Origin: a virus
Length of the DNA stretch: 32,000 nucleotides
IMG/VR virus record: IMGVR_UViG_3300045988_122038
Coordinates: 13,749 to 45,748 of that record
Strand: one strand, 5' to 3'
Shown: piece after piece, positions 1,059 through 32,000 of the stretch
Numbering within the stretch: position 1 is the stretch's first letter
Layout: every line of letters begins with the position of its first letter
Program-made: the position numbers and the translations under genes
Notes under the pieces: generated by a model
Databases searched by the model: none
Seen by the model: only the letters and a program-made list of their open reading frames with translations
Told to the model about the DNA's origin: nothing

Positions 1059-1526
1059 ATGAGTAAAACGGATTATGAAGAATATGTAGATGTTCAGGTG
1101 GATACATTAATTAAAAAACTTGAAATGTTCAAGATCTATGAAAGAAAGTTTAAATCGTTGGATGGAATCTTAAAGGATTTGGAGGTTCGCAAAAAAGAAT
1201 TTTCAGATCCAAAGTCACCATCATTTGAACAAAGACTAGATTCAAAGAAAAACAAGGACATTACAAATGATGTTCTTGTAAAGTTTATTTCAAAAGAAAA
1301 AACACTTGAAGATGATAAGAATCTAATCTTCGGAAAGATGAGAGAAATTGAAACAATTATTGACCTTATTCCGGATGATGATATTCGTTTATATATGAAA
1401 CGTCATTATATCAACGGAGAGTCATTTGAGAAGCTTTCAGGAGAAAAGTTCTGTAGCAGAATGAAAATGTATTACGCAATGAAAAAAGAGCTTAAAAAGC
1501 TCGTTATAGGGGATTTAAGTAAATAA
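1059..1526 (+). CDS. sigma-70 region-4-like HTH protein, candidate late-gene activator (RinA/ArpU/DUF1492-like by position)
   Basis: The C-terminal segment IPDDDIRLYMKRHYINGESFEKLSGEKFCSRMKMYYAMKKELKKL fits the region-4 HTH pattern. SD 'aggag' lies 6 nt upstream. Confidence 0.45.
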   Translation: MSKTDYEEYVDVQVDTLIKKLEMFKIYERKFKSLDGILKDLEVRKKEFSDPKSPSFEQRLDSKKNKDITNDVLVKFISKEKTLEDDKNLIFGKMREIETIIDLIPDDDIRLYMKRHYINGESFEKLSGEKFCSRMKMYYAMKKELKKLVIGDLSK

Positions 1527-1539
1527 GAGAGGACGAACA

Positions 1540-1827
1540 ATGCAGAAAGTAATCAGATCATACATTTTTGATGGGAAAAGTTTTGAAGAATTGCAAAAAG
1601 TGTTAGATGAAGGCTATGTTGTTGTTATGGCAAATAAGGTTGGAAAATGTGATGACGCTATTGAATACATCCTCGAAAAGAAAAACGAAGAAGTCTCGAT
1701 TGATGTTATTGTTAAAGGATTAAGAAAATTTGCAAAAAGCCTTTTTGGAAACGATGAACAAACAGAGTGGGTTAAGACAGGAATTTTACAAGCGGCAAAG
1801 CTCATCGAAGTAGGTCAAATAAGATGA
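1540..1827 (+). CDS. hypothetical early protein (95 aa)
   Basis: ORF track; 'agagagga' SD-like sequence upstream. Confidence 0.6.
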   Translation: MQKVIRSYIFDGKSFEELQKVLDEGYVVVMANKVGKCDDAIEYILEKKNEEVSIDVIVKGLRKFAKSLFGNDEQTEWVKTGILQAAKLIEVGQIR

Positions 1828-1894
1828 GATTAATTGCATAAATATGTGGTTGATTTTTTTACAAAGTTTTTATTTTATAAAAGTGTTACAAAGT

Positions 1895-1914
1895 AGCCTA
1901 TTTACTAGGCTTTT
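1895..1914 (+). terminator. weak intrinsic terminator-like hairpin after the first early operon
   Basis: AGCCTA (1895-1900) / TAGGCT (1906-1911), 5-nt loop, then TTT. This is also the first block of the 60-nt repeated element. Confidence 0.4.
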
Positions 1915-1955
1915 AAAAGGTTTGTAGTTAGTCTGATAATATATAGTTATCGGAC
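1896..1955 (+). repeat. copy 1 of a ~60-nt conserved non-coding element (partner at 6070-6130)
   Basis: Hand alignment. Block 1, GCCTATTTAnnAGGCTTTTAA, matches 19/21. Block 2, AGTCTnATAAnATATAGTTAnCnGAC, matches 22/26 with a 1-nt gap. Confidence 0.55.
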
Positions 1956-1971
1956 ATAGGAAGGAGTTCAG

Positions 1972-2136
1972 ATGATAAACAAAATTAAATGGTTTTTTAA
2001 AAGATTATTCTGTAAGCATGAATTTACTTGGTGTGTAAAGAATGAGATGTTTCATTCTCTCAGAGGTGAGACTCAGTATCTTGTGTGTTTGAAATGCGGG
2101 AAAGTGAAAGATACAAGATTTGTTGAATTTGAATAA
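1972..2136 (+). CDS. small zinc-ribbon-like protein (54 aa), not in ORF track
   Basis: AAGGAG at 1961-1966, 5 nt before the ATG. Translation MINKIKWFFKRLFCKHEFTWCVKNEMFHSLRGETQYLVCLKCGKVKDTRFVEFE carries CxH...C and CxxC pairs. Confidence 0.5.
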   Translation: MINKIKWFFKRLFCKHEFTWCVKNEMFHSLRGETQYLVCLKCGKVKDTRFVEFE

Positions 2137-2161
2137 ATGTGTGCTTTATAGGAGTGATATT

Positions 2162-2470
2162 GTGAGAAGGTTTTTAACGGAAGTGAAAAAGTTTTTTCTG
2201 ATTCATAATACAGAAAGTTTATTTGTACAATGGGAAGATTATTTTGTATGTGTTTATAAATCAGGTGAAACGCTTATAAGAGATGAACAAGGATTAAGAC
2301 TTCATAAGAAACATATTTGTGAATCACAATTCAAAAGTTTATATAGAAAGTTTTTAGATAATGAATTTGAATGCTTCAATTATGAAGATATAAAGAATAG
2401 ATGTAATAATTTTTGTCTAAATTCAGAAGAAGAATATAAAAAGTTTTTAAGAATATTTAGTGACTTGTAA
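2162..2470 (+). CDS. tandem paralogue 1 of a four-member family (unknown function)
   Basis: The in-frame GTG at 2162 is preceded by AGGAG (2150-2154). The track start at 2120 overlaps the zinc-ribbon ORF. The C-terminus ICESQFKSLYRKFLDNEFECFNYEDIKNRCNNF is near-identical to paralogue 2. Confidence 0.6.
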   Translation: MRRFLTEVKKFFLIHNTESLFVQWEDYFVCVYKSGETLIRDEQGLRLHKKHICESQFKSLYRKFLDNEFECFNYEDIKNRCNNFCLNSEEEYKKFLRIFSDL

Positions 2471-2490
2471 AAGTTTTAGGAGTAAAGGAA

Positions 2491-2916
2491 ATGAAAGACA
2501 AATTACCAAAGTTTTTAACAGAAAAACATATAAATAAAAAATATATAAATACAGGTGATGAACTTAATAAGCTGTTTATGAACAATAAAAAATATATAAA
2601 TATAGGTTATGAACTTAATAAACTGTTTATGATCAATAATACACAAAGTTTATTTGTACAATACGGAGATCGTGTTGAATGTGTTTATATGTCATATGAA
2701 AATGAAAAGTTTGAAAGGTGTCATTATGAAAGCAACGGTATACTCGTTATTAAGCATTATATTTGTGAATCGCAATTCAAAAGTTTATATAAAAAGTTTT
2801 TAGATAATGAAATTGATTGCTTAAACTATGAAGACGTAATGAATGGATGCAATAAGTTTTATCTAAATTCAGATGAAGATTATAAAAAGTTTATTAGAAT
2901 ATTGAATGATATGTAG
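2491..2916 (+). CDS. tandem paralogue 2 (141 aa) with an internal 17-aa duplication
   Basis: SD 'aggag' at 2479-2483. Shares LFVQ...CVY and ICESQFKSLYKKFLDNE...NYED...LNSDEDYKKF with paralogue 1. Confidence 0.65.
   Translation: MKDKLPKFLTEKHINKKYINTGDELNKLFMNNKKYINIGYELNKLFMINNTQSLFVQYGDRVECVYMSYENEKFERCHYESNGILVIKHYICESQFKSLYKKFLDNEIDCLNYEDVMNGCNKFYLNSDEDYKKFIRILNDM
2533..2634 (+). repeat. 2 x 51-bp in-frame tandem duplication (47/51 identical)
   Basis: AATAAAAAATATATAAATACAGGTGATGAACTTAATAAGCTGTTTATGAAC at 2533-2583 versus 2584-2634. Encodes NKKYINTGDELNKLFMN / NKKYINIGYELNKLFMI. Confidence 0.85.
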
Positions 2917-2938
2917 AAAGTTTTTTAGGAGTGATGAA

Positions 2939-3226
2939 ATGGATACAAATAAGTTTTCTTACAAAGAAGTTTTTGTGAAGTATGATAATGTACAAATTAG
3001 TGTTGTTTGTTCTAAGATGGTTGAAAAAGTTTTTGAATACAATGCGCATGATGATGAAGATGTGCCTGTGAATTATGTTTATTATGTGAAGAAAGAAAAG
3101 TTTTCTCAGTTGCTGGAAAAGTTTTTTGACGGTTCGATTCTATGCAAGCATGAAAAAGAATCTCAAAAGTTTTTTCCAACGTCTCAAGAACAATTAGAAA
3201 AAGTTTTTCTAATCCTGGATAAATAA
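2939..3226 (+). CDS. tandem paralogue 3 (divergent)
   Basis: ATG 2939 lies 7 nt after AGGAG (2927-2931). Shares the pattern FVKYDN.QISVVCS ... KEKFSQLLEKFFD ... KVFLILD with paralogue 4. Confidence 0.6.
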   Translation: MDTNKFSYKEVFVKYDNVQISVVCSKMVEKVFEYNAHDDEDVPVNYVYYVKKEKFSQLLEKFFDGSILCKHEKESQKFFPTSQEQLEKVFLILDK

Positions 3227-3244
3227 GCTTCTGGAGGTGTTGGA

Positions 3245-3565
3245 ATGTTTGAAAACAAGTTTTTATATACTGATATTCATATAAGTTATAAAGATACAAC
3301 AATAGTTGTTGTATGTTCAGATGATAAAGAAGTTATGTCTTTAGAAACAGATGGGTCTAAAAAATTATGGTATTACAGAGCCAATAAAGAAACGTTTAAT
3401 AGTTTGGTTGAAAAGTTATTGAATAGAGATATTGGAAATGGTCACAAAAAGGATTCAAAGTATTTTAAACTTTATTCAGGATCAAACTTAATGAAAGTGT
3501 TTAGTATTCTAAACTATATAGAATATAATACGATAAATGAGAAACTTCTTAAATTGAAAAAGTGA
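3245..3565 (+). CDS. tandem paralogue 4 (divergent)
   Basis: SD 'ggagg' upstream. Pattern ISYKDTTIVVVCS ... KETFNSLVEKLLN ... KVFSILN. Confidence 0.6.
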   Translation: MFENKFLYTDIHISYKDTTIVVVCSDDKEVMSLETDGSKKLWYYRANKETFNSLVEKLLNRDIGNGHKKDSKYFKLYSGSNLMKVFSILNYIEYNTINEKLLKLKK

Positions 3566-3600
3566 AAAACACGGTTTATAATATAGATGGTTAATTAATT

Positions 3601-3643
3601 AGGTTTGTTATTTGTGATATAGCACTAGTAACAAGCCTTTTTT
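3601..3643 (+). terminator. intrinsic terminator ending the rightward early block
   Basis: 10-bp stem AGGTTTGTTA / TAACAAGCCT (one G-U pair), 18-nt loop, followed by T5. Confidence 0.6.
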
Positions 3644-3703
3644 ATATTTAAACAAAAGAAACAAGAAAAACTTTTTGCAGCTGATCCAACTAAAAGAAGA
3701 CAT

Positions 3704-4945: not shown

Positions 4946-5428
4946 TTAACATACTTTTTTACCTTTTGAAACAACTTTTTTAATTTCTCTAAAAATTAAA
5001 TGTGTGAGTTTTTCTTCCGCTTGGCGTTCCGTGAATTTACTTTTTTCGCTTTCGCTTTCTTCCAAAATTATCGCAAGATCTTCAACGGCGCTTCTATTGT
5101 AGTAGTAACAAGTATCTAGAACGCTTGGGAGTCCTTGACACCATTCAAAAAATAAATTCTCAATACTCATGTTTCTTTTGTCGTATTTAACTTTTTCATC
5201 ATAGAAACAATCATAAATAGCGTAAGCATATACGCTGAACATGTCGATTTGTCTTCCGTGTTTTGTATCTTCTTCAAACTTTTCAATATATGCGTATTTA
5301 TCGTAACCGGTAAAATCTACATTATCACATACATACTTTTTAATATTTTTTACAGCTTCTTTTGAATAAGTCTTTAACATTTTCTTTTTTAACCCGTCTA
5401 TGGTAGAATAGAAAAGCAATATATACAA
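4946..5428 (-). CDS. hypothetical protein (160 aa from TTG; 144 aa if from the internal ATG at 5380)
   Basis: AGGAGG (reverse complement of 5440-5445) lies 11 nt upstream of the TTG at 5428. A 9-bp hairpin (5391-5399 / 5428-5436) spans the start region. Confidence 0.6.
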   Translation of the reverse strand: MYILLFYSTIDGLKKKMLKTYSKEAVKNIKKYVCDNVDFTGYDKYAYIEKFEEDTKHGRQIDMFSVYAYAIYDCFYDEKVKYDKRNMSIENLFFEWCQGLPSVLDTCYYYNRSAVEDLAIILEESESEKSKFTERQAEEKLTHLIFREIKKVVSKGKKVC

Positions 5429-5742: not shown

Positions 5743-5785
5743 TTATTTGCTTATTTAGTGACGCTATTCATTGACTTTTATATCT

Positions 5786-5798
5786 ATGAGTAAGCGCC
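5786..5798 (+). repeat. direct repeat core ATGAGTAAGCGCC, copy 1 (similarity extends to ~38 nt)
   Basis: Identical 13-mer at 5922-5934. Followed by the hairpin TAGGCTT...AAGCCTA. Confidence 0.7.
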
Positions 5799-5921
5799 CT
5801 TTTTTTATGTCTAGGCTTATTTTAATGTGAAGCCTAAACAATAACTTATTTAATAAACTTATAAACTTATCCATATTATCAAGTCCAATCTATCAATTTA
5901 AAGTTGTCTTGGCTTGGCTTT

Positions 5922-5934
5922 ATGAGTAAGCGCC
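5922..5934 (+). repeat. direct repeat core ATGAGTAAGCGCC, copy 2
   Basis: 136 nt from copy 1. Followed by the hairpin GTGTAAGC-TTAACTT-GCTTACAC. Confidence 0.7.
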
Positions 5935-5971
5935 GTTTGTTTTGTGTAAGCTTAACTTGCTTACACTTAAT

Positions 5972-5999: not shown

Positions 6000-6069
6000 T
6001 AAAAAATAATAATATTTTTTTTGCTCATTTTTTCAAAAAGCTTTTTGTTTTTGAAACGTGCACGCAAGC

Positions 6070-6130
6070 GCCTATTTAAAAGGCTTTTAAGCGTGTTCGG
6101 TTCTAGTCTTATAACATATAGTTAACAGAC
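6070..6130 (+). repeat. copy 2 of the ~60-nt conserved non-coding element
   Basis: See copy 1 (1896-1955). Here it lies 20 nt upstream of the strong terminator at 6151. Confidence 0.55.
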
Positions 6131-6150
6131 TATAAAATATATACATGTAT

Positions 6151-6175
6151 GGACGTTGTGAACGTCCTTTTTTTT
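6151..6175 (+). terminator. strong intrinsic terminator
   Basis: GGACGTT (6151-6157) / AACGTCC (6161-6167), 3-nt loop, T8 (6168-6175). Confidence 0.75.
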
Positions 6176-6399
6176 ATGTGGTCTTGCACCAGATAAAGGA
6201 AGACAAGTAGCACGCTTGAACGCATGGGACGGGTGCATATTATCCAATGTATGTTGGAGCTGTTGGAGTTTGCTATATATAAGAACGCGTACGCACGTTC
6301 TATTAATAGAGCTATGGCCATGGTATGAAACAACGCTTTCAACAAGTCATGTTGAAACATCTTTCAACACAATAATAAATATGTGAATATCATATGACT

Positions 6400-6600
6400 G
6401 AAGCCGTTAACGGGGCGGTGTGGTGGTAGCTGCATAGGTTTGATTTTTAACCCTGAAAGCGCCCAGGGCTGGGATCAGATCAGCATAGACCCCCCTATCT
6501 TTCAAAAGTTTTTTGTGTTTTGGGGAACGGCGTGGGGAGTTTAAAAAAACCGGGTCATGAGTGCATGAGAGGGGGTAAAATCTGAATTTCTTCATTTTGT
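6400..6600. other. candidate cos-site / structured-RNA region (GC-rich core of the ORF-less gap)
   Basis: G and C runs (GGGGCGGTGTGGTGG at 6412, C6 at 6490-6495, GGGGAACGGCGTGGGGAG at 6522, G5 at 6571-6575) lie directly upstream of HNH-TerS-TerL. The cleavage position cannot be read from the sequence. Confidence 0.25.
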
Positions 6601-6611
6601 ACAGTGTACAA
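6597..6611. promoter_or_regulatory. perfect 7-1-7 palindrome TTGTACAgTGTACAA (operator/activator site), copy 1
   Basis: The 19-mer ATTTTGTACAGTGTACAAA (6594-6612) recurs exactly at 30291-30309. In both copies a TATTnT hexamer lies 13 nt downstream (here 6625-6630). Confidence 0.55.
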
Positions 6612-6705
6612 AGAAAAACCGTGATATTCTGTAGTCGTGAAGATTGGAAAACATCTTCTAGAACAAACAAGGTAGTTCTTGGATTGTTTCATTTTAGTGC
6701 CCGTT

Positions 6706-6740
6706 GAAAAAGACCTGTGGAAACATGGGTCTTTTTCATA
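6706..6740. terminator. bidirectional terminator-like hairpin upstream of the HNH gene
   Basis: AAAAAGACC ... GGTCTTTTT with a 12-nt loop. Confidence 0.35.
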
Positions 6741-6828
6741 TCACTGCATTCAAAGTATTTACTGTTAGTTTTTGTCGTCCTTTAAATCTGTTAACTGTAG
6801 TTATGGTCAAAACTTTGAATGTAGCGAT

Positions 6829-7215
6829 ATGAAAAAATATTATGGTTCAGAAGCAACAAAAACAGGTGCTAGAAATTATGCTAGAAAATTTTACTCAAGC
6901 AAGGCTTGGGAAAAGAAAAGCAAAGCGTATAGAAAGGCACATCCACTTTGTGAAAGATGTTTGAAAAAAGGTATCTATACCAGGTCGACTTGTGTGCATC
7001 ACAAAACACACATTGACCAGGACAACTATAGAGATGTACACATTCTATTTGGCGATTCCAATTTGGAAGCGTTGTGTGACTTATGTCATGCTGAAGAACA
7101 TTCAAAACGTAAACCATCTTTTGAATTTGATGAAAAAGGAATGCTTATAGGATGTGGAAGGGAGGATGATGAATGCAAAAAGGAGCATGGAAAAAAAGAA
7201 TCAATTCACAACTAG
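6829..7215 (+). CDS. phage-associated HNH endonuclease (packaging accessory)
   Basis: Motifs WEKKSKAYRKAHPLCERC, VHHKTHI, NLEALCDLCHAEEH. First ATG in frame; sits upstream of the terminase genes. Confidence 0.85.
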   Translation: MKKYYGSEATKTGARNYARKFYSSKAWEKKSKAYRKAHPLCERCLKKGIYTRSTCVHHKTHIDQDNYRDVHILFGDSNLEALCDLCHAEEHSKRKPSFEFDEKGMLIGCGREDDECKKEHGKKESIHN

Positions 7216-7547
7216 AGAATTTAGGCACATTTTCTCCTGAATATTCGGTTGCGGTTGATTCACTTGCAGATGCATTGGCCCAATATGATTCAACAATGAA
7301 GCAATGGAGAGATTCAAGTAAAGCAAATGGCTACAAATCACTACAGATGGTTGTTGAATATACCAATAAAGGCGGTGCAACGAATTTATCACGCTCACCA
7401 TACTACATTATTACCGTTCAATTACGTGATCAGATCATGAAGTACTGCAAAGAACTTGGCTTGTCACCTACTTCACTTTCAAAAACAACAGAAGTATCCG
7501 GAAAAAAAGGTGATGAATTGGATGAGTTCATGAGCAGATTTAAATGA
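7173..7547 (+). CDS. terS: terminase small subunit (P27-family-like)
   Basis: About 120 aa, immediately upstream of and ATGA-coupled to TerL. SD 'gggagga'. The N-terminal GTFSPEYSVAVDSLADA pattern is typical of this family. Confidence 0.7.
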   Translation: MQKGAWKKRINSQLENLGTFSPEYSVAVDSLADALAQYDSTMKQWRDSSKANGYKSLQMVVEYTNKGGATNLSRSPYYIITVQLRDQIMKYCKELGLSPTSLSKTTEVSGKKGDELDEFMSRFK

Positions 7548-9202
7548 AATATTTAGACATTTATAAAGAACGTATTAAATCGGGTGAAGATGTAGTCGGT
7601 AAGTGGATAAAGCTTAATCTTCAATATGTTGAAAGAGGTTTAGCAAATGGAGATTTCTTCTATGATGAGAAAAAAGCGGAAATGCATATAGCGTTTATTG
7701 AAACGTTTTGTCATCACGTAGAAGGAAAAACAACAAAAGTGAAGCTTGAGCCTTGGCAAAAATACTATATTGCGTGCATATTCGGACTTGTTGATAAGAA
7801 TGGAAAAAGGCAGTTTCGTGAAATACCTACGGTCATGGGCCGAAAACAAGGAAAATCATTTCTTTGTGCAGGTATTGAACTTGATGTTGGGTTTACATCT
7901 GATGAAGCAGGTATGCAGATATACAATATAGCGCCAAAGTTAAAACAAGCACAGATCATTTACAATGTTCTGTATCAAATGATGGAACACTCTAAAGCGT
8001 TGAGTCAAAGAGTGAAAAAACGTAGAACAGATATCTACATGAAACAGAACAACTGTAGATGGGAGCCAATTGCCTTTGCATCTAAGAAATCAGACGGATT
8101 TAACCCATATTTGACAATCTTTGATGAGTTTGCAGCCTGGGAAGGTGAAGCTGGTATGAAAATGTACAACGTTATGTTGTCGGCAGGTGGTGCAAGACCT
8201 GATCCACTTTATATTCCTGTAAGTACCGCAAACTATATTGATGAAGGATTATATGATGAATTATTTGTTCGTGGAACATCTGTTTTACTTGGTACGTCTG
8301 ATGAAAAACAAATGTTGCCTTTCTTTTATATGATTGATGATATTCAAAAATGGGATGATCCTATTGAATTAAGAAAAGCAATGCCAAACCTTGGAATATC
8401 GGTTTCTTATGAATATTTGCAGAATGAAATTTTAAAAGCACATAGCTCACCGACATATAAGGCGGAGTTTATAACAAAATATGCGAATATCAAACAGAAT
8501 TCAACGGAAGCGTTATTTAGTGCAGAAGATATCAACAAAGTTAAAGGTGAAGAACTTAGATTTGAAGATTTTGCACATACATATGCAGTTGGTGGAATCG
8601 ATTTGTCGCAAACAACCGATTTAACAGCCGCATCTGTTGTTATACGAATTCAAGAACAGGATTACATATTTACTCATTTTTGGCTTCCAACATTAAAAAT
8701 CAAGGAGCTAGAAGAAAGAGACAAAATACCGTATACAAGATTTATTCAATTGGGATATTTAAGTCCAAGTGGGGAAAACTTTGTACGGTATGAAGATGTT
8801 ACGGAATGGTTTGAAATGCTACGTAAGAAATACAAGATTTATTGCGTTGTCGTCGGATATGACCGCTATTCGGCACAGTATCTTGTGGATGATATGAAGA
8901 AATATGGATACAAGATGGATGATGTAATTCAGGGAACTAACCTTACACCGGTTATTAATGAATTTACGGGATATGTAAGAGATGGATTTGTTCATACAGG
9001 AACAAATGGATTATTACAAGCACATATGTCTAGTGTGGCATTAAAGAAAGTTGCGGAGGACAATCGTGTCCGCATGATTAAAACTGATCCAAGAAAACAT
9101 ATTGATGGATATGCATCTGTTATTGATGCATATACAGTAAGACAAAAATGGTGGGATACATTTAAATACCGCCTTGAAAACAAGAAAAGGAAGGTGAATT
9201 AG
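7544..9202 (+). CDS. terL: terminase large subunit
   Basis: 552 aa. Walker A-like VMGRKQGKS and Walker B-like LTIFDEFA, with a C-terminal nuclease region. Position is as expected. Confidence 0.95.
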   Translation: MKYLDIYKERIKSGEDVVGKWIKLNLQYVERGLANGDFFYDEKKAEMHIAFIETFCHHVEGKTTKVKLEPWQKYYIACIFGLVDKNGKRQFREIPTVMGRKQGKSFLCAGIELDVGFTSDEAGMQIYNIAPKLKQAQIIYNVLYQMMEHSKALSQRVKKRRTDIYMKQNNCRWEPIAFASKKSDGFNPYLTIFDEFAAWEGEAGMKMYNVMLSAGGARPDPLYIPVSTANYIDEGLYDELFVRGTSVLLGTSDEKQMLPFFYMIDDIQKWDDPIELRKAMPNLGISVSYEYLQNEILKAHSSPTYKAEFITKYANIKQNSTEALFSAEDINKVKGEELRFEDFAHTYAVGGIDLSQTTDLTAASVVIRIQEQDYIFTHFWLPTLKIKELEERDKIPYTRFIQLGYLSPSGENFVRYEDVTEWFEMLRKKYKIYCVVVGYDRYSAQYLVDDMKKYGYKMDDVIQGTNLTPVINEFTGYVRDGFVHTGTNGLLQAHMSSVALKKVAEDNRVRMIKTDPRKHIDGYASVIDAYTVRQKWWDTFKYRLENKKRKVN

Positions 9203-30572: not shown

Positions 30573-30686
30573 ATGAATGATGAAGAAAAAGTAGTAGATT
30601 ATGAGAATCTATCAGAAGAAGCAAAAGAAGAATTAAGCAATGGCAAGGAAGAAGGTGTAGATGAAGAATGTCATATTCCGGATTAG
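30573..30686 (+). CDS. possible 37-aa acidic peptide between holin and endolysin, not in ORF track
   Basis: SD GGAGGA 6 nt upstream. Translation MNDEEKVVDYENLSEEAKEELSNGKEEGVDEECHIPD. Overlaps the endolysin start by 19 nt. Confidence 0.4.
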   Translation: MNDEEKVVDYENLSEEAKEELSNGKEEGVDEECHIPD

Positions 30687-31744
30687 CAACATATTGTAAC
30701 AGAACATCACAACATTATGATGGTCGTTTTGGATATAAGGTTTGTAAAATCACTCCACACTACATGGCTGCGGCATGGAGTGGTAAACAATGTGCAGATT
30801 ATTTTGCACGAAATACTCGTCAAGCATCTTCCAATTATTGTATTGGAATTAATGGAGACATTGCATGCAGTGTTGATGAAGAAAATGCTGCATGGACAAG
30901 TTCAAATTGGTTGAATGATTCTCAATCAATTACAATTGAATGTGGAAACATTAATAACGCAACTGGAGAAATGACGCAAGCTACTTGGGATAGCTTGGTG
31001 AATCTATGTGTTGATATTTGTAAACGATATGGATTTAGATTGAACTATACAGGAAATTCTAGCGGATCATTGACTATGCACAAAATGTTTGCGGCTACAT
31101 CATGCCCTGGAGCATGGTTGGAAGCACGTATGCCACAATTGGCTAATGAAGTAAATGCAAAGTTAGATGGAAAGGTTGAAACACCAAAACCTACAACTCC
31201 AAGTGGAGAAAAATATTCAGTTAATTTACCTATCTGTACAAACACATTGAGTGTGAATTGCTACGGAACTTCTACAGTTAAAAAAGGTGATTGGTCAGGT
31301 GTCATTGGTAGAGTAATTAAAGGAACAAAATATCCATATCGTGTTGATCGTAATGGAGTAGCGATTGGATGGACTAATGATGCTGGTATTGATACAGACC
31401 CTCATGTGCCAGTTGGCGCCACACAGTCTAGCGCAGAAGCTATCGACCAAATTTTGCATGAAGGTAGCTATGTTACATCTGTACATATGAAAATTGGTAA
31501 TCAAGGCTTGAAAAAGATTGGTGATGATTTATGCTGCTACTTGTCTAAATTAGGCGGTTGGTTTCCTATTCGTATGGTAGATAAAGTACCAAATTCAGAT
31601 GGATATAATGACAATGTACTGCATACCACAAATGCAGTAGTCTACGTATCTAGAATCAGAGTCGATGCAGTGAATGTTCAAAAGAATATTGTCAAGATTG
31701 GTGGTGTTTGGGTTGATCCAACACCGTTAACAGAAATTGAATAA
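30668..31744 (+). CDS. endolysin: N-acetylmuramoyl-L-alanine amidase (Amidase_2/PGRP-type) plus C-terminal wall-binding region
   Basis: Segments CKITPHYMAA, ASSNYCIGINGDI, ENAAWTSSNWLNDSQSITIECGN and SCPG. Last phage gene. Confidence 0.9.
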   Translation: MSYSGLATYCNRTSQHYDGRFGYKVCKITPHYMAAAWSGKQCADYFARNTRQASSNYCIGINGDIACSVDEENAAWTSSNWLNDSQSITIECGNINNATGEMTQATWDSLVNLCVDICKRYGFRLNYTGNSSGSLTMHKMFAATSCPGAWLEARMPQLANEVNAKLDGKVETPKPTTPSGEKYSVNLPICTNTLSVNCYGTSTVKKGDWSGVIGRVIKGTKYPYRVDRNGVAIGWTNDAGIDTDPHVPVGATQSSAEAIDQILHEGSYVTSVHMKIGNQGLKKIGDDLCCYLSKLGGWFPIRMVDKVPNSDGYNDNVLHTTNAVVYVSRIRVDAVNVQKNIVKIGGVWVDPTPLTEIE

Positions 31745-31946: not shown

Positions 31947-32000
31947 GGTCCAGTGGTGTAGTGGTTAACATGCCTCCCTGTCACGGAGGAGATCGTGGGT
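31947..32000 (+). tRNA. tRNA-Asp (anticodon GTC), 5' part; truncated by the window end
   Basis: GGTCCAG-TG-GTGT-AGTGGTTA-ACAT-G-CCTCC-CTGTCAC-GGAGG-AGATC-GTGGG-T folds as acceptor, D arm, anticodon arm and the start of the T arm. Close to the Bacillus tRNA-Asp sequence as I remember it. Confidence 0.9.

Follow-up and report, generated by a model that had tools for sequence, protein, structure and literature searches.

A strand-specific AAAGTTT(T) word in a phage accessory gene array is probably a cis-acting nucleotide signal

The word AAAGTTT(T), clustered on one strand of an array of four small phage genes, is a cis-acting nucleotide signal and no mere side effect of the encoded proteins, as judged from how it is spelled and how it is conserved among related phages. 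Positions below refer to the window, the whole 32-kb stretch of viral DNA that was analysed. The array comprises the following features:

2162..2470, + strand: gene A1, GTG start, 102 aa, A1/A2 family; AAAGTTTT at 2188, 2347 and 2440
2188..3207, + strand: cluster of 12 exact AAAGTTTT, within the whole array at 2162-3565
2470..2477, + strand: spacer copy, from the A1 stop codon to the A2 Shine-Dalgarno sequence (taAAAGTTTTAGGAG)
2491..2916, + strand: gene A2, 141 aa, A1 paralogue; AAAGTTTT at 2508 and 2793
2917..2924, + strand: spacer copy, from the A2 stop codon to the A3 Shine-Dalgarno sequence (tagAAAGTTTTttAGGAG)
2939..3226, + strand: gene A3, 95 aa; AAAGTTTT at 3026, 3097, 3118, 3166 and 3200
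3245..3565, + strand: gene A4, 106 aa, distant A3 paralogue (33% identity); single AAGTTT at 3257

Our recount agreed with the first-pass annotation that 12 exact copies of AAAGTTTT, all on the + strand, lie within 2188-3207 (at 2188, 2347, 2440, 2470, 2508, 2793, 2917, 3026, 3097, 3118, 3166 and 3200). AAGTTTT, previously counted 16 times in this interval, occurs there 15 times, the sixteenth copy sitting at 3257. The earlier number of three + strand copies outside the array stands, with positions corrected to 1577, 1863 and 6505 (the first two had been placed near 1574 and 1864), and five copies are found on the - strand of the window, at 3667, 4181, 6809, 8775 and 27306. Both strands of the whole window together hold 20 copies, against 5.8 +/- 2.7 in dinucleotide shuffles. 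The core of the word is a hexamer or heptamer: 22 AAGTTT fall in the array (2162-3565), 20 of them inside the four genes, against 34 in the whole 32 kb, and the corresponding numbers for AAAGTTT are 18 and 26. The array consensus around the word reads aAAAAGTTTTTw. Exact octamers number 12 in the array, against 14 for all 24 one-mismatch variants pooled, while the 25-kb late region holds none against 27, and this ratio of exact to variant copies shows that the motif is sharply defined. The + strand of that late region is without any AAAGTTTT, and the reverse complement is nearly absent from the array, both in the window and in relatives. The array copies are direct repeats, oriented like the copy at 1863, and the distances between neighbours are irregular (13, 21, 26 and so on up to 137 bp), with no helical phasing or period found among them. 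The array is the most A+T-rich part of the window (22-28% G+C), and it shows no GC-skew inflection except at the change of coding strand. No common element, as an array of promoters would have, was seen 3' of the copies.

The word is coded in three ways: as K-F (AAG TTT), as K-V-F (AAA GTT TTT) and as x-S-L/F (xxA AGT TTx). In addition to its exact octamers, A1 carries AAAGTTTA at 2214 and 2334, both read x-S-L, and A2 has other AAGTTT at 2646, 2707, 2781, 2854 and 2887. In A3, the copies at 3026 and 3200 are read K-V-F and those at 3097, 3118 and 3166 K-F, and further AAGTTT lie at 2951 and 2967. A4 retains the K-F, K-V-F and K-L-L peptides, its sites other than 3257 being spelled AAAGTTAT and AAAGTGTT. 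Eight octamers had been described as encoding K-F-[FL] through AAG TTT; the frame A-AAG-TTT-T is correct, and the peptide does not hold for all of them, the copy at 3097 being K-F-S. Likewise, the two copies described as non-coding and 5' of a Shine-Dalgarno sequence do lie in the spacers, save that the copy at 2470 shares the last base of the TAA stop codon. The spacer copy at 2917 keeps its AAGTTT core in 26 of 34 alignable relatives and is less conserved than the coding copies.

The spelling of the word is selected beyond what the proteins require. When the four genes were resampled synonymously with the codon usage of the window, 4.4 +/- 1.9 AAGTTT were expected against the 20 observed, none of 5000 resamplings reached 20, and AAGTTT was the most enriched of all hexamers under this control for protein and codon usage. 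By frame, 13 copies were observed against 2.5 expected in frame 0 and 4 against 0.57 in frame 2; the 3 copies in frame 1, against 1.2, are not significant alone. Lys-Phe is written AAG-TTT at all 13 of its occurrences in the array, against 6 of 29 elsewhere, while array lysines outside K-F pairs (33 AAA, 12 AAG) have the same AAA share as elsewhere. The cluster is retained in about 50 related Solobacterium-type phages. Scoring a synonymous site as variable when a variant was present in at least three sequences (the A1/A2 family alignment contains 53 unique sequences), we found variants at 0 of 25 two-fold sites inside the word and at 29 of 94 outside it (Fisher 3.5e-4). Third-position synonymous diversity is 0.006-0.01 inside the word and 0.11-0.12 outside, in genes whose dS is 0.21-0.27 and whose dN/dS reaches 0.52 in A1/A2 and 0.22 in A3, against 0.04-0.08 in U0, HNH and TerS. 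The pairwise comparison with the relative whose activator is 75% identical points in the same direction, with differences at 2 of 23 motif sites and 23 of 108 others, and is not significant alone (P 0.13). An unrelated family of 195-aa proteins encoded in the same region is enriched too (3.5 AAGTTT against 0.9), mostly in frames 1 and 2, where the word is read mostly as K-V-F and K-S-F. Taken together, these results bear out the earlier proposal of selection at the nucleotide level. The explanation that had been set against it, peptide motif plus codon usage, predicts 4.4 copies and not 20, and the related arrays of about 50 phages keep the word. Since the spelling is selected where the protein needs none, the word is probably a binding or processing signal.

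The array proteins themselves gave few clues. Their families have no relatives beyond this phage lineage: word-indexed searches returned only relatives at or above 53-62% identity, a profile search of 1.84 billion representatives gave 9 matches (the family itself and one spurious repeat protein), a metagenome scan recovered the same family only, and a near-identity DNA search of the array against a phage collection had no match. No significant family was assigned to them in Pfam, PHROG or PADLOC, and the AlphaFold model of A3 (pLDDT 85.5) has no fold match in PDB or BFVD. Weak HMM matches of A4 to Cas6 (E 0.05 and 0.0046) had no backing from the fold search and were discounted. The literature held nothing relevant on the octamer or heptamer as a DNA or RNA signal. 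A scan of viral contigs for triple octamers returned at least 120 stretches; among the matches listed, the non-family clusters checked for spacing are regular tandem repeats, unlike the dispersed array. A tandem-repeat or CRISPR-like array was likewise rejected here, as the copies are dispersed in unique coding sequence and unit spacing is not constant.

Upstream and downstream of the array lie a candidate reader, two regulatory blocks and the remaining + strand copies:

1059..1526, + strand: U0, LtrB-type (DUF1492) late-transcription activator and candidate reader; Pfam PF07374, phrog_36
1577..1584, + strand: copy in gene U1 (1540-1827), third frame, AA AGT TTT, K-S-F
1855..1955, + strand: repeat-hairpin-promoter block; AAAGT boxes at 1863, 1880 and 1890
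1863..1870, + strand: box 1, the copy heading the regulatory block before the array; AAAGTTTTTATTT in every aligned relative promoter copy
6020..6130, + strand: P2, paralogous block, 75% identical, upstream of the HNH and terminase genes
6505..6512, + strand: isolated copy in a conserved G+C-rich non-coding stretch

U0 matches PF07374 marginally (22.7 bits, cutoff 21.5) and the phrog_36 'transcriptional regulator' family with an E-value of 1.7e-5, has no match in an annotated phage collection, and itself contains two AAAGTTT (1145 and 1280). We found a homologue of it in 51 related loci, almost always on a contig with an A-family match as well, and in relatives it is positioned downstream of early and replication genes. 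The U0 family is 93-100% identical, bar the one 75% relative, which has the same motif and in which activator, block and array are still together. The array is an accessory operon just 3' of this late activator gene. DUF1492 corresponds to LtrB, and Ltr proteins recognise direct repeats of 7 nt, two to four in number and just distal to their own gene, with a terminator and then the regulated promoter after them (PMC3753634). The order of parts in 1855-1955 is that of Ltr-dependent late promoters (PMC3753634): the AAAGT boxes are followed by a hairpin, AGCCTA-TTTAC-TAGGCT, with a T run (1895-1914), and by a promoter with -35 TTTAAA (1912-1917) and -10 GATAAT (1935-1940). The repeated unit is 5 nt only (AAAGT), with no clean heptamer, and up to three other genes lie between U0 and the block. 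This motif-bearing block precedes the accessory array, which stops before a convergent gene block. In the paralogous P2, AAAAAGCTTTTT takes the place of the motif, boxes 2 and 3 differ from AAAGT, and a palindrome, CAAAAAGCTTTTTG, stands at 6034-6047 where the first block has AAAGTTTTT; an intrinsic terminator lies 3' of it (6151-6175). Comparing the array promoter with the region just before HNH gave merely scattered short matches. The isolated copy at 6505 is of doubtful membership because its AAA part is GGA or GGG in some relatives; our guess is that the stretch around it is the cos region. We also considered that the motif tracks transcription of the convergent minus-strand genes, an idea that was dropped since most of the reverse-complement peak there is due to a 185-aa gene on the + strand, in which three antisense copies are weakly conserved.

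Among the candidates listed in the first-pass annotation, a binding array for a DNA- or RNA-binding protein is the favoured one, while the data speak neither for nor against a nuclease or modification target or decoy. Tentatively, we propose that the word is the recognition heptamer of the phage's own LtrB/DUF1492 activator and that the cluster is a group of DNA sites for it. One copy, at 1863, would head the repeat-hairpin-promoter block as in an Ltr operator, and about 20 copies in the same orientation, written into the codons and spacers of fast-evolving downstream genes, would supply extra sites at high density. These may act as an antenna that concentrates the activator at the array promoter or as a sink that buffers free activator, as datA does for DnaA; either would set the level or timing of activator-dependent transcription. 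Several observations weigh against this proposal. P2 is without the motif, so that the Ltr box could be a different element should P2 prove to be the real late promoter, and, unlike an Ltr-dependent promoter, the motif-bearing block serves the accessory array and not terS and the late operon. The 5-nt repeat unit of that block, the marginal DUF1492 match of U0 and the weaker conservation of the 2917 spacer copy count against it too. The co-occurrence of U0 and the motif has no discriminating power because the two never vary independently in the data. The strand bias of 20 to 0 has no obvious reason if the reader binds double-stranded DNA.

That bias would be the natural outcome if the word were read in RNA, and a signal in the operon mRNA, AAAGUUUU, recognised by an RNA-binding protein or endoribonuclease, is a possibility nearly as likely as the DNA-site reading, though still an uncertain one. 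The copies may set the half-life or translation of the array transcripts, or a phage nuclease could shut the operon off in the manner of T4 RegB, which cuts at GGAG; cleavage behind the lone G of an A/U-rich sequence would also suit the preferences of RNase Y. In agreement with an mRNA signal, all copies are on the transcribed sense strand, two of them directly 5' of a Shine-Dalgarno sequence, and unrelated genes of the same region are enriched as well. Sense AAGTTT is depleted in late genes (7 against 14.4, P 0.011) and antisense AAGTTT is not (11 against 13.0), a depletion that is not specific because AAATTT is depleted there too (22 against 31.6). In RNA the word is self-complementary on the sense strand only (six A-U and two G-U pairs), and when 1945-3660 is folded by partition function, motif bases, 7% of the sequence, direct 47% of their pairing mass to one another; motif-motif pairing follows from the sequence and is therefore no independent evidence, and flanking bases that extend the helix change without compensation. 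An mRNA signal also has no known reader, no nuclease candidate adjoining the array having been found in Pfam, PHROG and PADLOC searches, and the lower conservation of the 2917 spacer copy than of the coding copies speaks against it. Rather improbable, in our estimate, is an account with no reader at all, in which coding alone produces the word: a single paralogous superfamily would have Lys-Phe as a structural peptide motif, every copy would go back to one AAG-TTT unit, and an effect of codon pairs or of translation, or the avoidance of AAATTT, would maintain the spelling. Of the 20 copies in coding sequence, 13 are K-F; these K and F residues rank with the best conserved, also when A3 is compared with A4; several copies are duplicates within paralogous repeats (D1 and D3); and the K-V-F and K-L-L of A4 are spelled without the word. 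No hexamer of the array is more depleted than AAATTT (0 against 7.6), so that in frame 0 selection for AAGTTT is inseparable from selection against AAATTT. Such a by-product does not, however, account for the copies in frame 2, significant alone, or for those in frame 1, the spacers and the promoter block, nor for the unrelated 195-aa family with its K-V-F and K-S-F readings. Moreover, array lysines outside K-F use AAA as often as elsewhere, late genes, presumed to be the most highly expressed, favour AAA-TTY for K-F, and synonymous sites are frozen despite a dS of about 0.25. No better placed is the idea that the array is a decoy or timer in coding DNA, offering about 20 words to the late activator or to a host nuclease.

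The remaining alternatives concern DNA transactions. The array is highly mosaic among relatives, with fusions of A1/A2 to A3 and to an N-terminal domain, which could suggest that the word is a microhomology that aids shuffling and supplies the crossover points of mosaic, fused and hybrid genes. In one relative (L088), an A3-A4 hybrid gene has its crossover within an 18-nt shared GTTAAGAAAGAAAAGTTT with the motif at its end. Yet this junction, the only one examined, falls within a longer shared run, as expected of ordinary homologous recombination. The internal tandem duplication of A2 (51 nt, 2533-2634) has no motif at its borders, eight bases are well below the homology usually needed for efficient recombination, and evolvability is not selected strongly enough to keep synonymous sites frozen; we regard this role as unlikely. 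Still less likely is a role close to a genome end, as a barrier of the Chi type or as a nuclease decoy. With cos at about 6.2-6.7 kb, packaged DNA would have its right end 3-4.5 kb away from the array, whose uniform + orientation is the one that an AddAB-type nuclease entering from that end would read. The copies at 6505 (+) and 6809 (-) flank the guessed cos, each in the orientation that an incoming nuclease would read, and recur as a pair about 305 nt apart in many relatives. Anti-restriction genes (ArdA) are found in relatives between the array and that end. Against this, cos is placed only by guess, the word is missing from the + strand of the late region (25 kb), the 6809 copy is accounted for by a local hairpin, and the Chi sequences known to us are G-rich and spread genome-wide. 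We consider least plausible of all the earlier suggestion that the cluster serves as origin iterons or as a partition centromere, in favour of which stand its dense direct repeats and its place where the window is richest in A+T. The unit is just 7-8 bp, and spacing of 13 to 137 bp without phasing is irregular and therefore not that of an iteron or centromere array. A Pfam and PHROG scan of the region shows no adjacent rep, par or initiator gene, and the DnaA-like and replication genes of a relative are several kb further upstream. The window end carries a partial tRNA and a relative (L268) has a gene for a phage integrase, both of which suggest an element that looks like an integrated prophage and not a plasmid.

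Nucleotide signals inside coding sequence are hard to prove, and the evidence is unusually clear-cut here: in genes for fast-evolving proteins (dN/dS up to 0.5) the word is frozen at synonymous sites across about 50 phages, and it occurs in three frames and in spacers. Were an Ltr-type activator the reader, this would be the first intragenic site cluster for that regulator family, which controls packaging and lysis in many Gram-positive phages, and would provide a handle on late-gene timing. Should the word be read in RNA, it would be a sequence-specific signal for mRNA fate, of a kind that we do not know from phages of this Firmicute lineage of mouth and gut. As a decoy, the gene cluster would double as a titration locus that could set the time of late-gene firing, and in a lysogen it could sequester the activator of a related phage coming in, amounting to superinfection exclusion by DNA titration.

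Comparison with known systems places the array close to several of them and identical to none. Iterons are typically 17-22 bp, regularly spaced and beside an initiator gene; the array shares with them direct repeats, sometimes within a gene, in A+T-rich DNA, and differs in having no 17-22 bp unit, regular spacing or adjoining initiator gene. Like Chi, whose action depends on orientation to a DNA end, the word is a strand-specific octamer, but it forms one local A/T-rich cluster and is missing from the + strand of the late genes. The targets of MazF (UACAU, enriched in S. aureus sraP) and of T4 RegB (GGAG in early mRNAs) resemble it as sense-strand words over-represented in defined transcripts, partly beside ribosome-binding sites, that give these mRNAs a common fate; the present word is longer and has no nuclease candidate, and to our knowledge synonymous-site conservation has never been shown for RegB or MazF targets. 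Clusters of DnaA boxes, such as E. coli datA and those of B. subtilis, titrate DnaA. As proposed here, they are local groups of short regulator words away from the main site, in which number probably counts over exact position; unlike the array, they are mostly intergenic, contain both orientations and act on replication initiation, and we know of no link between them and phage late transcription, nor of any described intragenic array of Ltr sites. Ltr activators (RinA, ArpU, LtrA, LtrB, which is DUF1492, and LtrC) belong to Gram-positive siphoviruses, and their operators fit 2-4 repeats into about 59 non-coding nt immediately before terS (PMC3753634). By contrast, about 20 copies lie here in coding sequence 3' of the promoter, the operon is an accessory array and not terS, and the block nearer terS has a different box. 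Ltr operators are short 7-nt direct repeats in one orientation with a terminator and promoter after them, an arrangement that the block at 1855-1955 seems to follow with its 5-nt repeats, the motif here being the first box.

A recount agrees with the first-pass annotation that all 12 exact copies of AAAGTTTT between 2188 and 3207 lie on the + strand. Across the whole window, the octamer occurs 15 times on the + strand and 5 times on the - strand, against 5.8 copies on both strands in shuffled sequences. Its core, AAGTTT, is found 22 times in 2162-3565 and 34 times across the window (18 and 26, respectively, for AAAGTTT), and the logo of the word reads aAAAAGTTTTTw. The word is sharply defined, with 12 exact octamers in the array against 14 for all single-mismatch variants pooled; the corresponding figures for the 25-kb late region are 0 and 27. 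The interval holds 15 AAGTTTT heptamers rather than the 16 annotated, and the copies described as encoding K-F-F/L do so except for one, which encodes K-F-S. The cluster is contained in four small genes:

2162-2470, + strand, A1
2491-2916, + strand, A2
2939-3226, + strand, A3
3245-3565, + strand, A4

The proposal that the K-F peptide and codon usage explain the excess fails. With protein sequences fixed and synonymous codons drawn from the window's usage, 4.4 +/- 1.9 AAGTTT are expected against the 20 observed, a count reached in none of 5000 draws; with the array's own codon usage, only 7.2 are expected. Split by frame, the counts are 13 seen for 2.5 expected (AAG TTT), 3 for 1.2 (xAA GTT Txx, not significant by itself) and 4 for 0.57 (xxA AGT TTx). 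Lys-Phe is spelled AAG-TTT in 13/13 cases in the array and in 6/29 outside it, while the remaining lysines of the array use AAA as often as elsewhere. Under the same synonymous-codon control, AAGTTT tops the enrichment among all hexamers in the array genes and AAATTT is the most depleted in the four genes of 2162-3565 (0 for 7.6 expected from the proteins), so that, in frame 0, selection for AAGTTT is not separable from selection against AAATTT. The out-of-frame and spacer copies, together with the copy in the promoter block described below, speak for positive selection of AAGTTT. The late genes, too, have fewer copies of the palindrome AAATTT than expected (22 for 31.6). In relatives, an unrelated family of 195-aa membrane-like genes in the same region carries 3.5 copies for 0.9 expected, chiefly as K-V-F and K-S-F, and gene families outside the island show no excess, with counts at or below expectation. 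A mere by-product of coding is given a smaller weight.

Conservation provides a second, independent line of support for selection at the nucleotide level. Every relative carries 10-14 array octamers on the same strand, and over 50 loci the mean density of AAGTTT is 16-25 copies per kb within the array, where its reverse complement is near zero, and 0.3-0.5 farther off. Codon alignments (53 A1/A2 and 48 A3 sequences) give a third-position synonymous diversity of 0.006-0.01 within the word, compared with 0.11-0.12 outside it (permutation test including A4, P 0.0002). Two-fold sites at which at least three sequences have a synonymous alternative number 0/25 inside the word and 29/94 outside (Fisher 3.5e-4; P 0.006 when limited to K and F codons). 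In a relative whose activator is just 75% identical, the array persists as a single fused gene of 229 aa with 12 AAGTTT, in which K-F is AAG-TTT in 8/8 cases; the pairwise test against it goes in the same direction and is not significant by itself. Two points call for caution: the spacer copy 5' of A3 is kept in only 26/34 relatives, and copies per gene range from 5 to 8. Copy number seems to weigh more than individual sites.

A1 and A2 form a single family; A3 is a distant paralogue of A4, and a common fold for all four is possible. Searches found neither homologues outside this phage lineage nor a family or fold match. A4 gave weak Cas6 matches (Pfam PF01881, E 0.05; PADLOC Cas6, E 0.0046, residues 30-76), which are probably due to chance, since no Cas6 emerged when the model of the homologous A3 was used in a fold search. 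The genes are mosaic, relatives showing fusions, hybrids and one frameshifted variant: an A3-A4 hybrid (L088 8001-8312) with its junction within an 18-nt shared stretch ending in the word, an A1/A2-A3 fusion of 229 aa (L268 11443-12132), and an A3 frameshifted by one base after YYVKK, where the word reads K-S-F (L091 807-1064), as read on 10 contigs that encode this protein. A2 contains a 51-nt tandem duplication (2533-2634, 92% identical, repeating KKYINxGxELNKLFMxN); relatives carry the unit once, about one and a half times, or twice. The array proteins evolve fast: with dS equal (0.21-0.27), dN/dS reaches 0.52 in A1/A2 and 0.22 in A3, compared with 0.04-0.08 in the activator U0, HNH and the small terminase. 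The near-palindromic word leaves the antisense of A3 (3012-3302, - strand) open for 96 codons, with recurring EK[TL]F peptides; the synonymous variation seen in the rest of A3 speaks against a true overlapping gene. In relatives, the adjoining minus-strand block carries an ArdA anti-restriction gene (L091 3247-3750, L092 3276-3779, L268 14514-15020), where the window has a different gene (4946-5428, phrog_11100). The region resembles an accessory or anti-defence island.

The window is a portion of a temperate siphovirus or prophage, its late genes opening with:

6829-7215, HNH endonuclease gene
7173-7547, small terminase gene
7544-9202, large terminase gene

The long + strand ORFs that follow presumably encode structural and lysis proteins. 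No sequenced phage has a large terminase more than 47-48% identical to this one, and no near match to the array DNA was found in the phage collection. Solobacterium, or a closely related bacterium, is the most likely host, since among ~50 distinct related IMG/VR contigs one comes from a Solobacterium genome bin and others come from human gut metagenomes. A partial tRNA (31947-32000; Rfam, 35.5 bits), directly after a 358-codon ORF (30668-31744), is interrupted by the window end, hence the absence of an ARAGORN call, and may mark the attachment site.

Directly upstream of HNH, 6200-6700 is non-coding, highly conserved and 41-43% G+C, with C and G runs; an Rfam scan gave no family at threshold, and we guess that the cos site is here. 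Through a 31-nt inverted repeat, the HNH leader folds into a long hairpin (6732-6836; -44.5 kcal/mol, z -5.6 against shuffles) that includes the - strand AAAGTTTT at 6809 and hides ATG 6829, the start codon, along with the bases preceding it; the predicted fold may exert translational control on the first late gene. Terminator-like units, TATGAGTAAGCGCCCTTTTTTT and variants, lie at 5785-5806, 5921-5942 and 6158-6174. The non-coding 5.7-6.2 kb region that contains them also has promoter-like sites on both strands and may produce short RNAs.

What does the cluster do? A tandem repeat is ruled out; in a triple-octamer scan of viruses, the non-family matches whose spacing was checked proved to be regular tandem repeats. 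The suggested iteron or centromere is unlikely, given the short unit, the irregular spacing with no phasing and the absence of rep or par genes nearby; an origin and recombination microhomology likewise receive smaller weight. So does a Chi-like barrier: the word is oriented as such a role would require given the guessed position of cos, but the late genes have none on their + strand. A signal acting in mRNA is a tentative candidate. Every copy lies in sense mRNA, two adjoin Shine-Dalgarno sequences, AAAGUUUU self-pairs through G-U wobbles in sense RNA only, and copies pair with one another in predicted folds. No covariation and no candidate reader were found. The late genes are depleted of the sense and not the antisense word, but AAATTT is depleted as well.

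Sites for an Ltr-type activator are a slightly stronger, still tentative, candidate. DUF1492 proteins constitute the LtrB family of the Ltr superfamily, whose proteins recognise two to four 7-nt direct repeats right behind their own gene, followed by the activator gene's terminator and the activated promoter (PMC3753634). The relevant features are:

1059-1526, U0, DUF1492 protein
1863, 1880 and 1890, AAAGT boxes (block 1855-1955)
1895-1914, hairpin with T run (same block)
1912-1940, -35/-10 (same block)
6034-6047, perfect 14-bp palindrome CAAAAAGCTTTTTG, nearly invariant in relatives
5999-5972, - strand, sigma-70-type promoter (TTGACA-16-TATAAT) for the minus-strand block

The conserved block 1855-1955 resembles the Ltr arrangement in its order of boxes, hairpin and promoter, with only the 5-nt AAAGT repeated, and its promoter serves the array operon. 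Its best conserved box, box 1, reads AAAGTTTTT, which is the array's word in the same orientation. A second copy (6020-6130), 75% identical over about 125 nt, lies some 700 nt 5' of the HNH-terminase operon; the first precedes the accessory array. The core TAGTCTnATAAnATATAGTTAnCnGAC is near-identical in both and conserved among relatives, and the duplication is a real finding. In place of the word, the second block reads AAAAAGCTTTTT, a nearly invariant palindrome; the 14-bp palindrome, flanked by this block's promoter and the minus-strand consensus promoter, looks in sequence like an operator common to two divergent promoters, and a terminator follows. Because the duplicated block carries a different box, the simple equation of the word with an Ltr box is weakened. 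The array would be a cis-regulatory site cluster in an unusual form, intragenic and embedded in codons.
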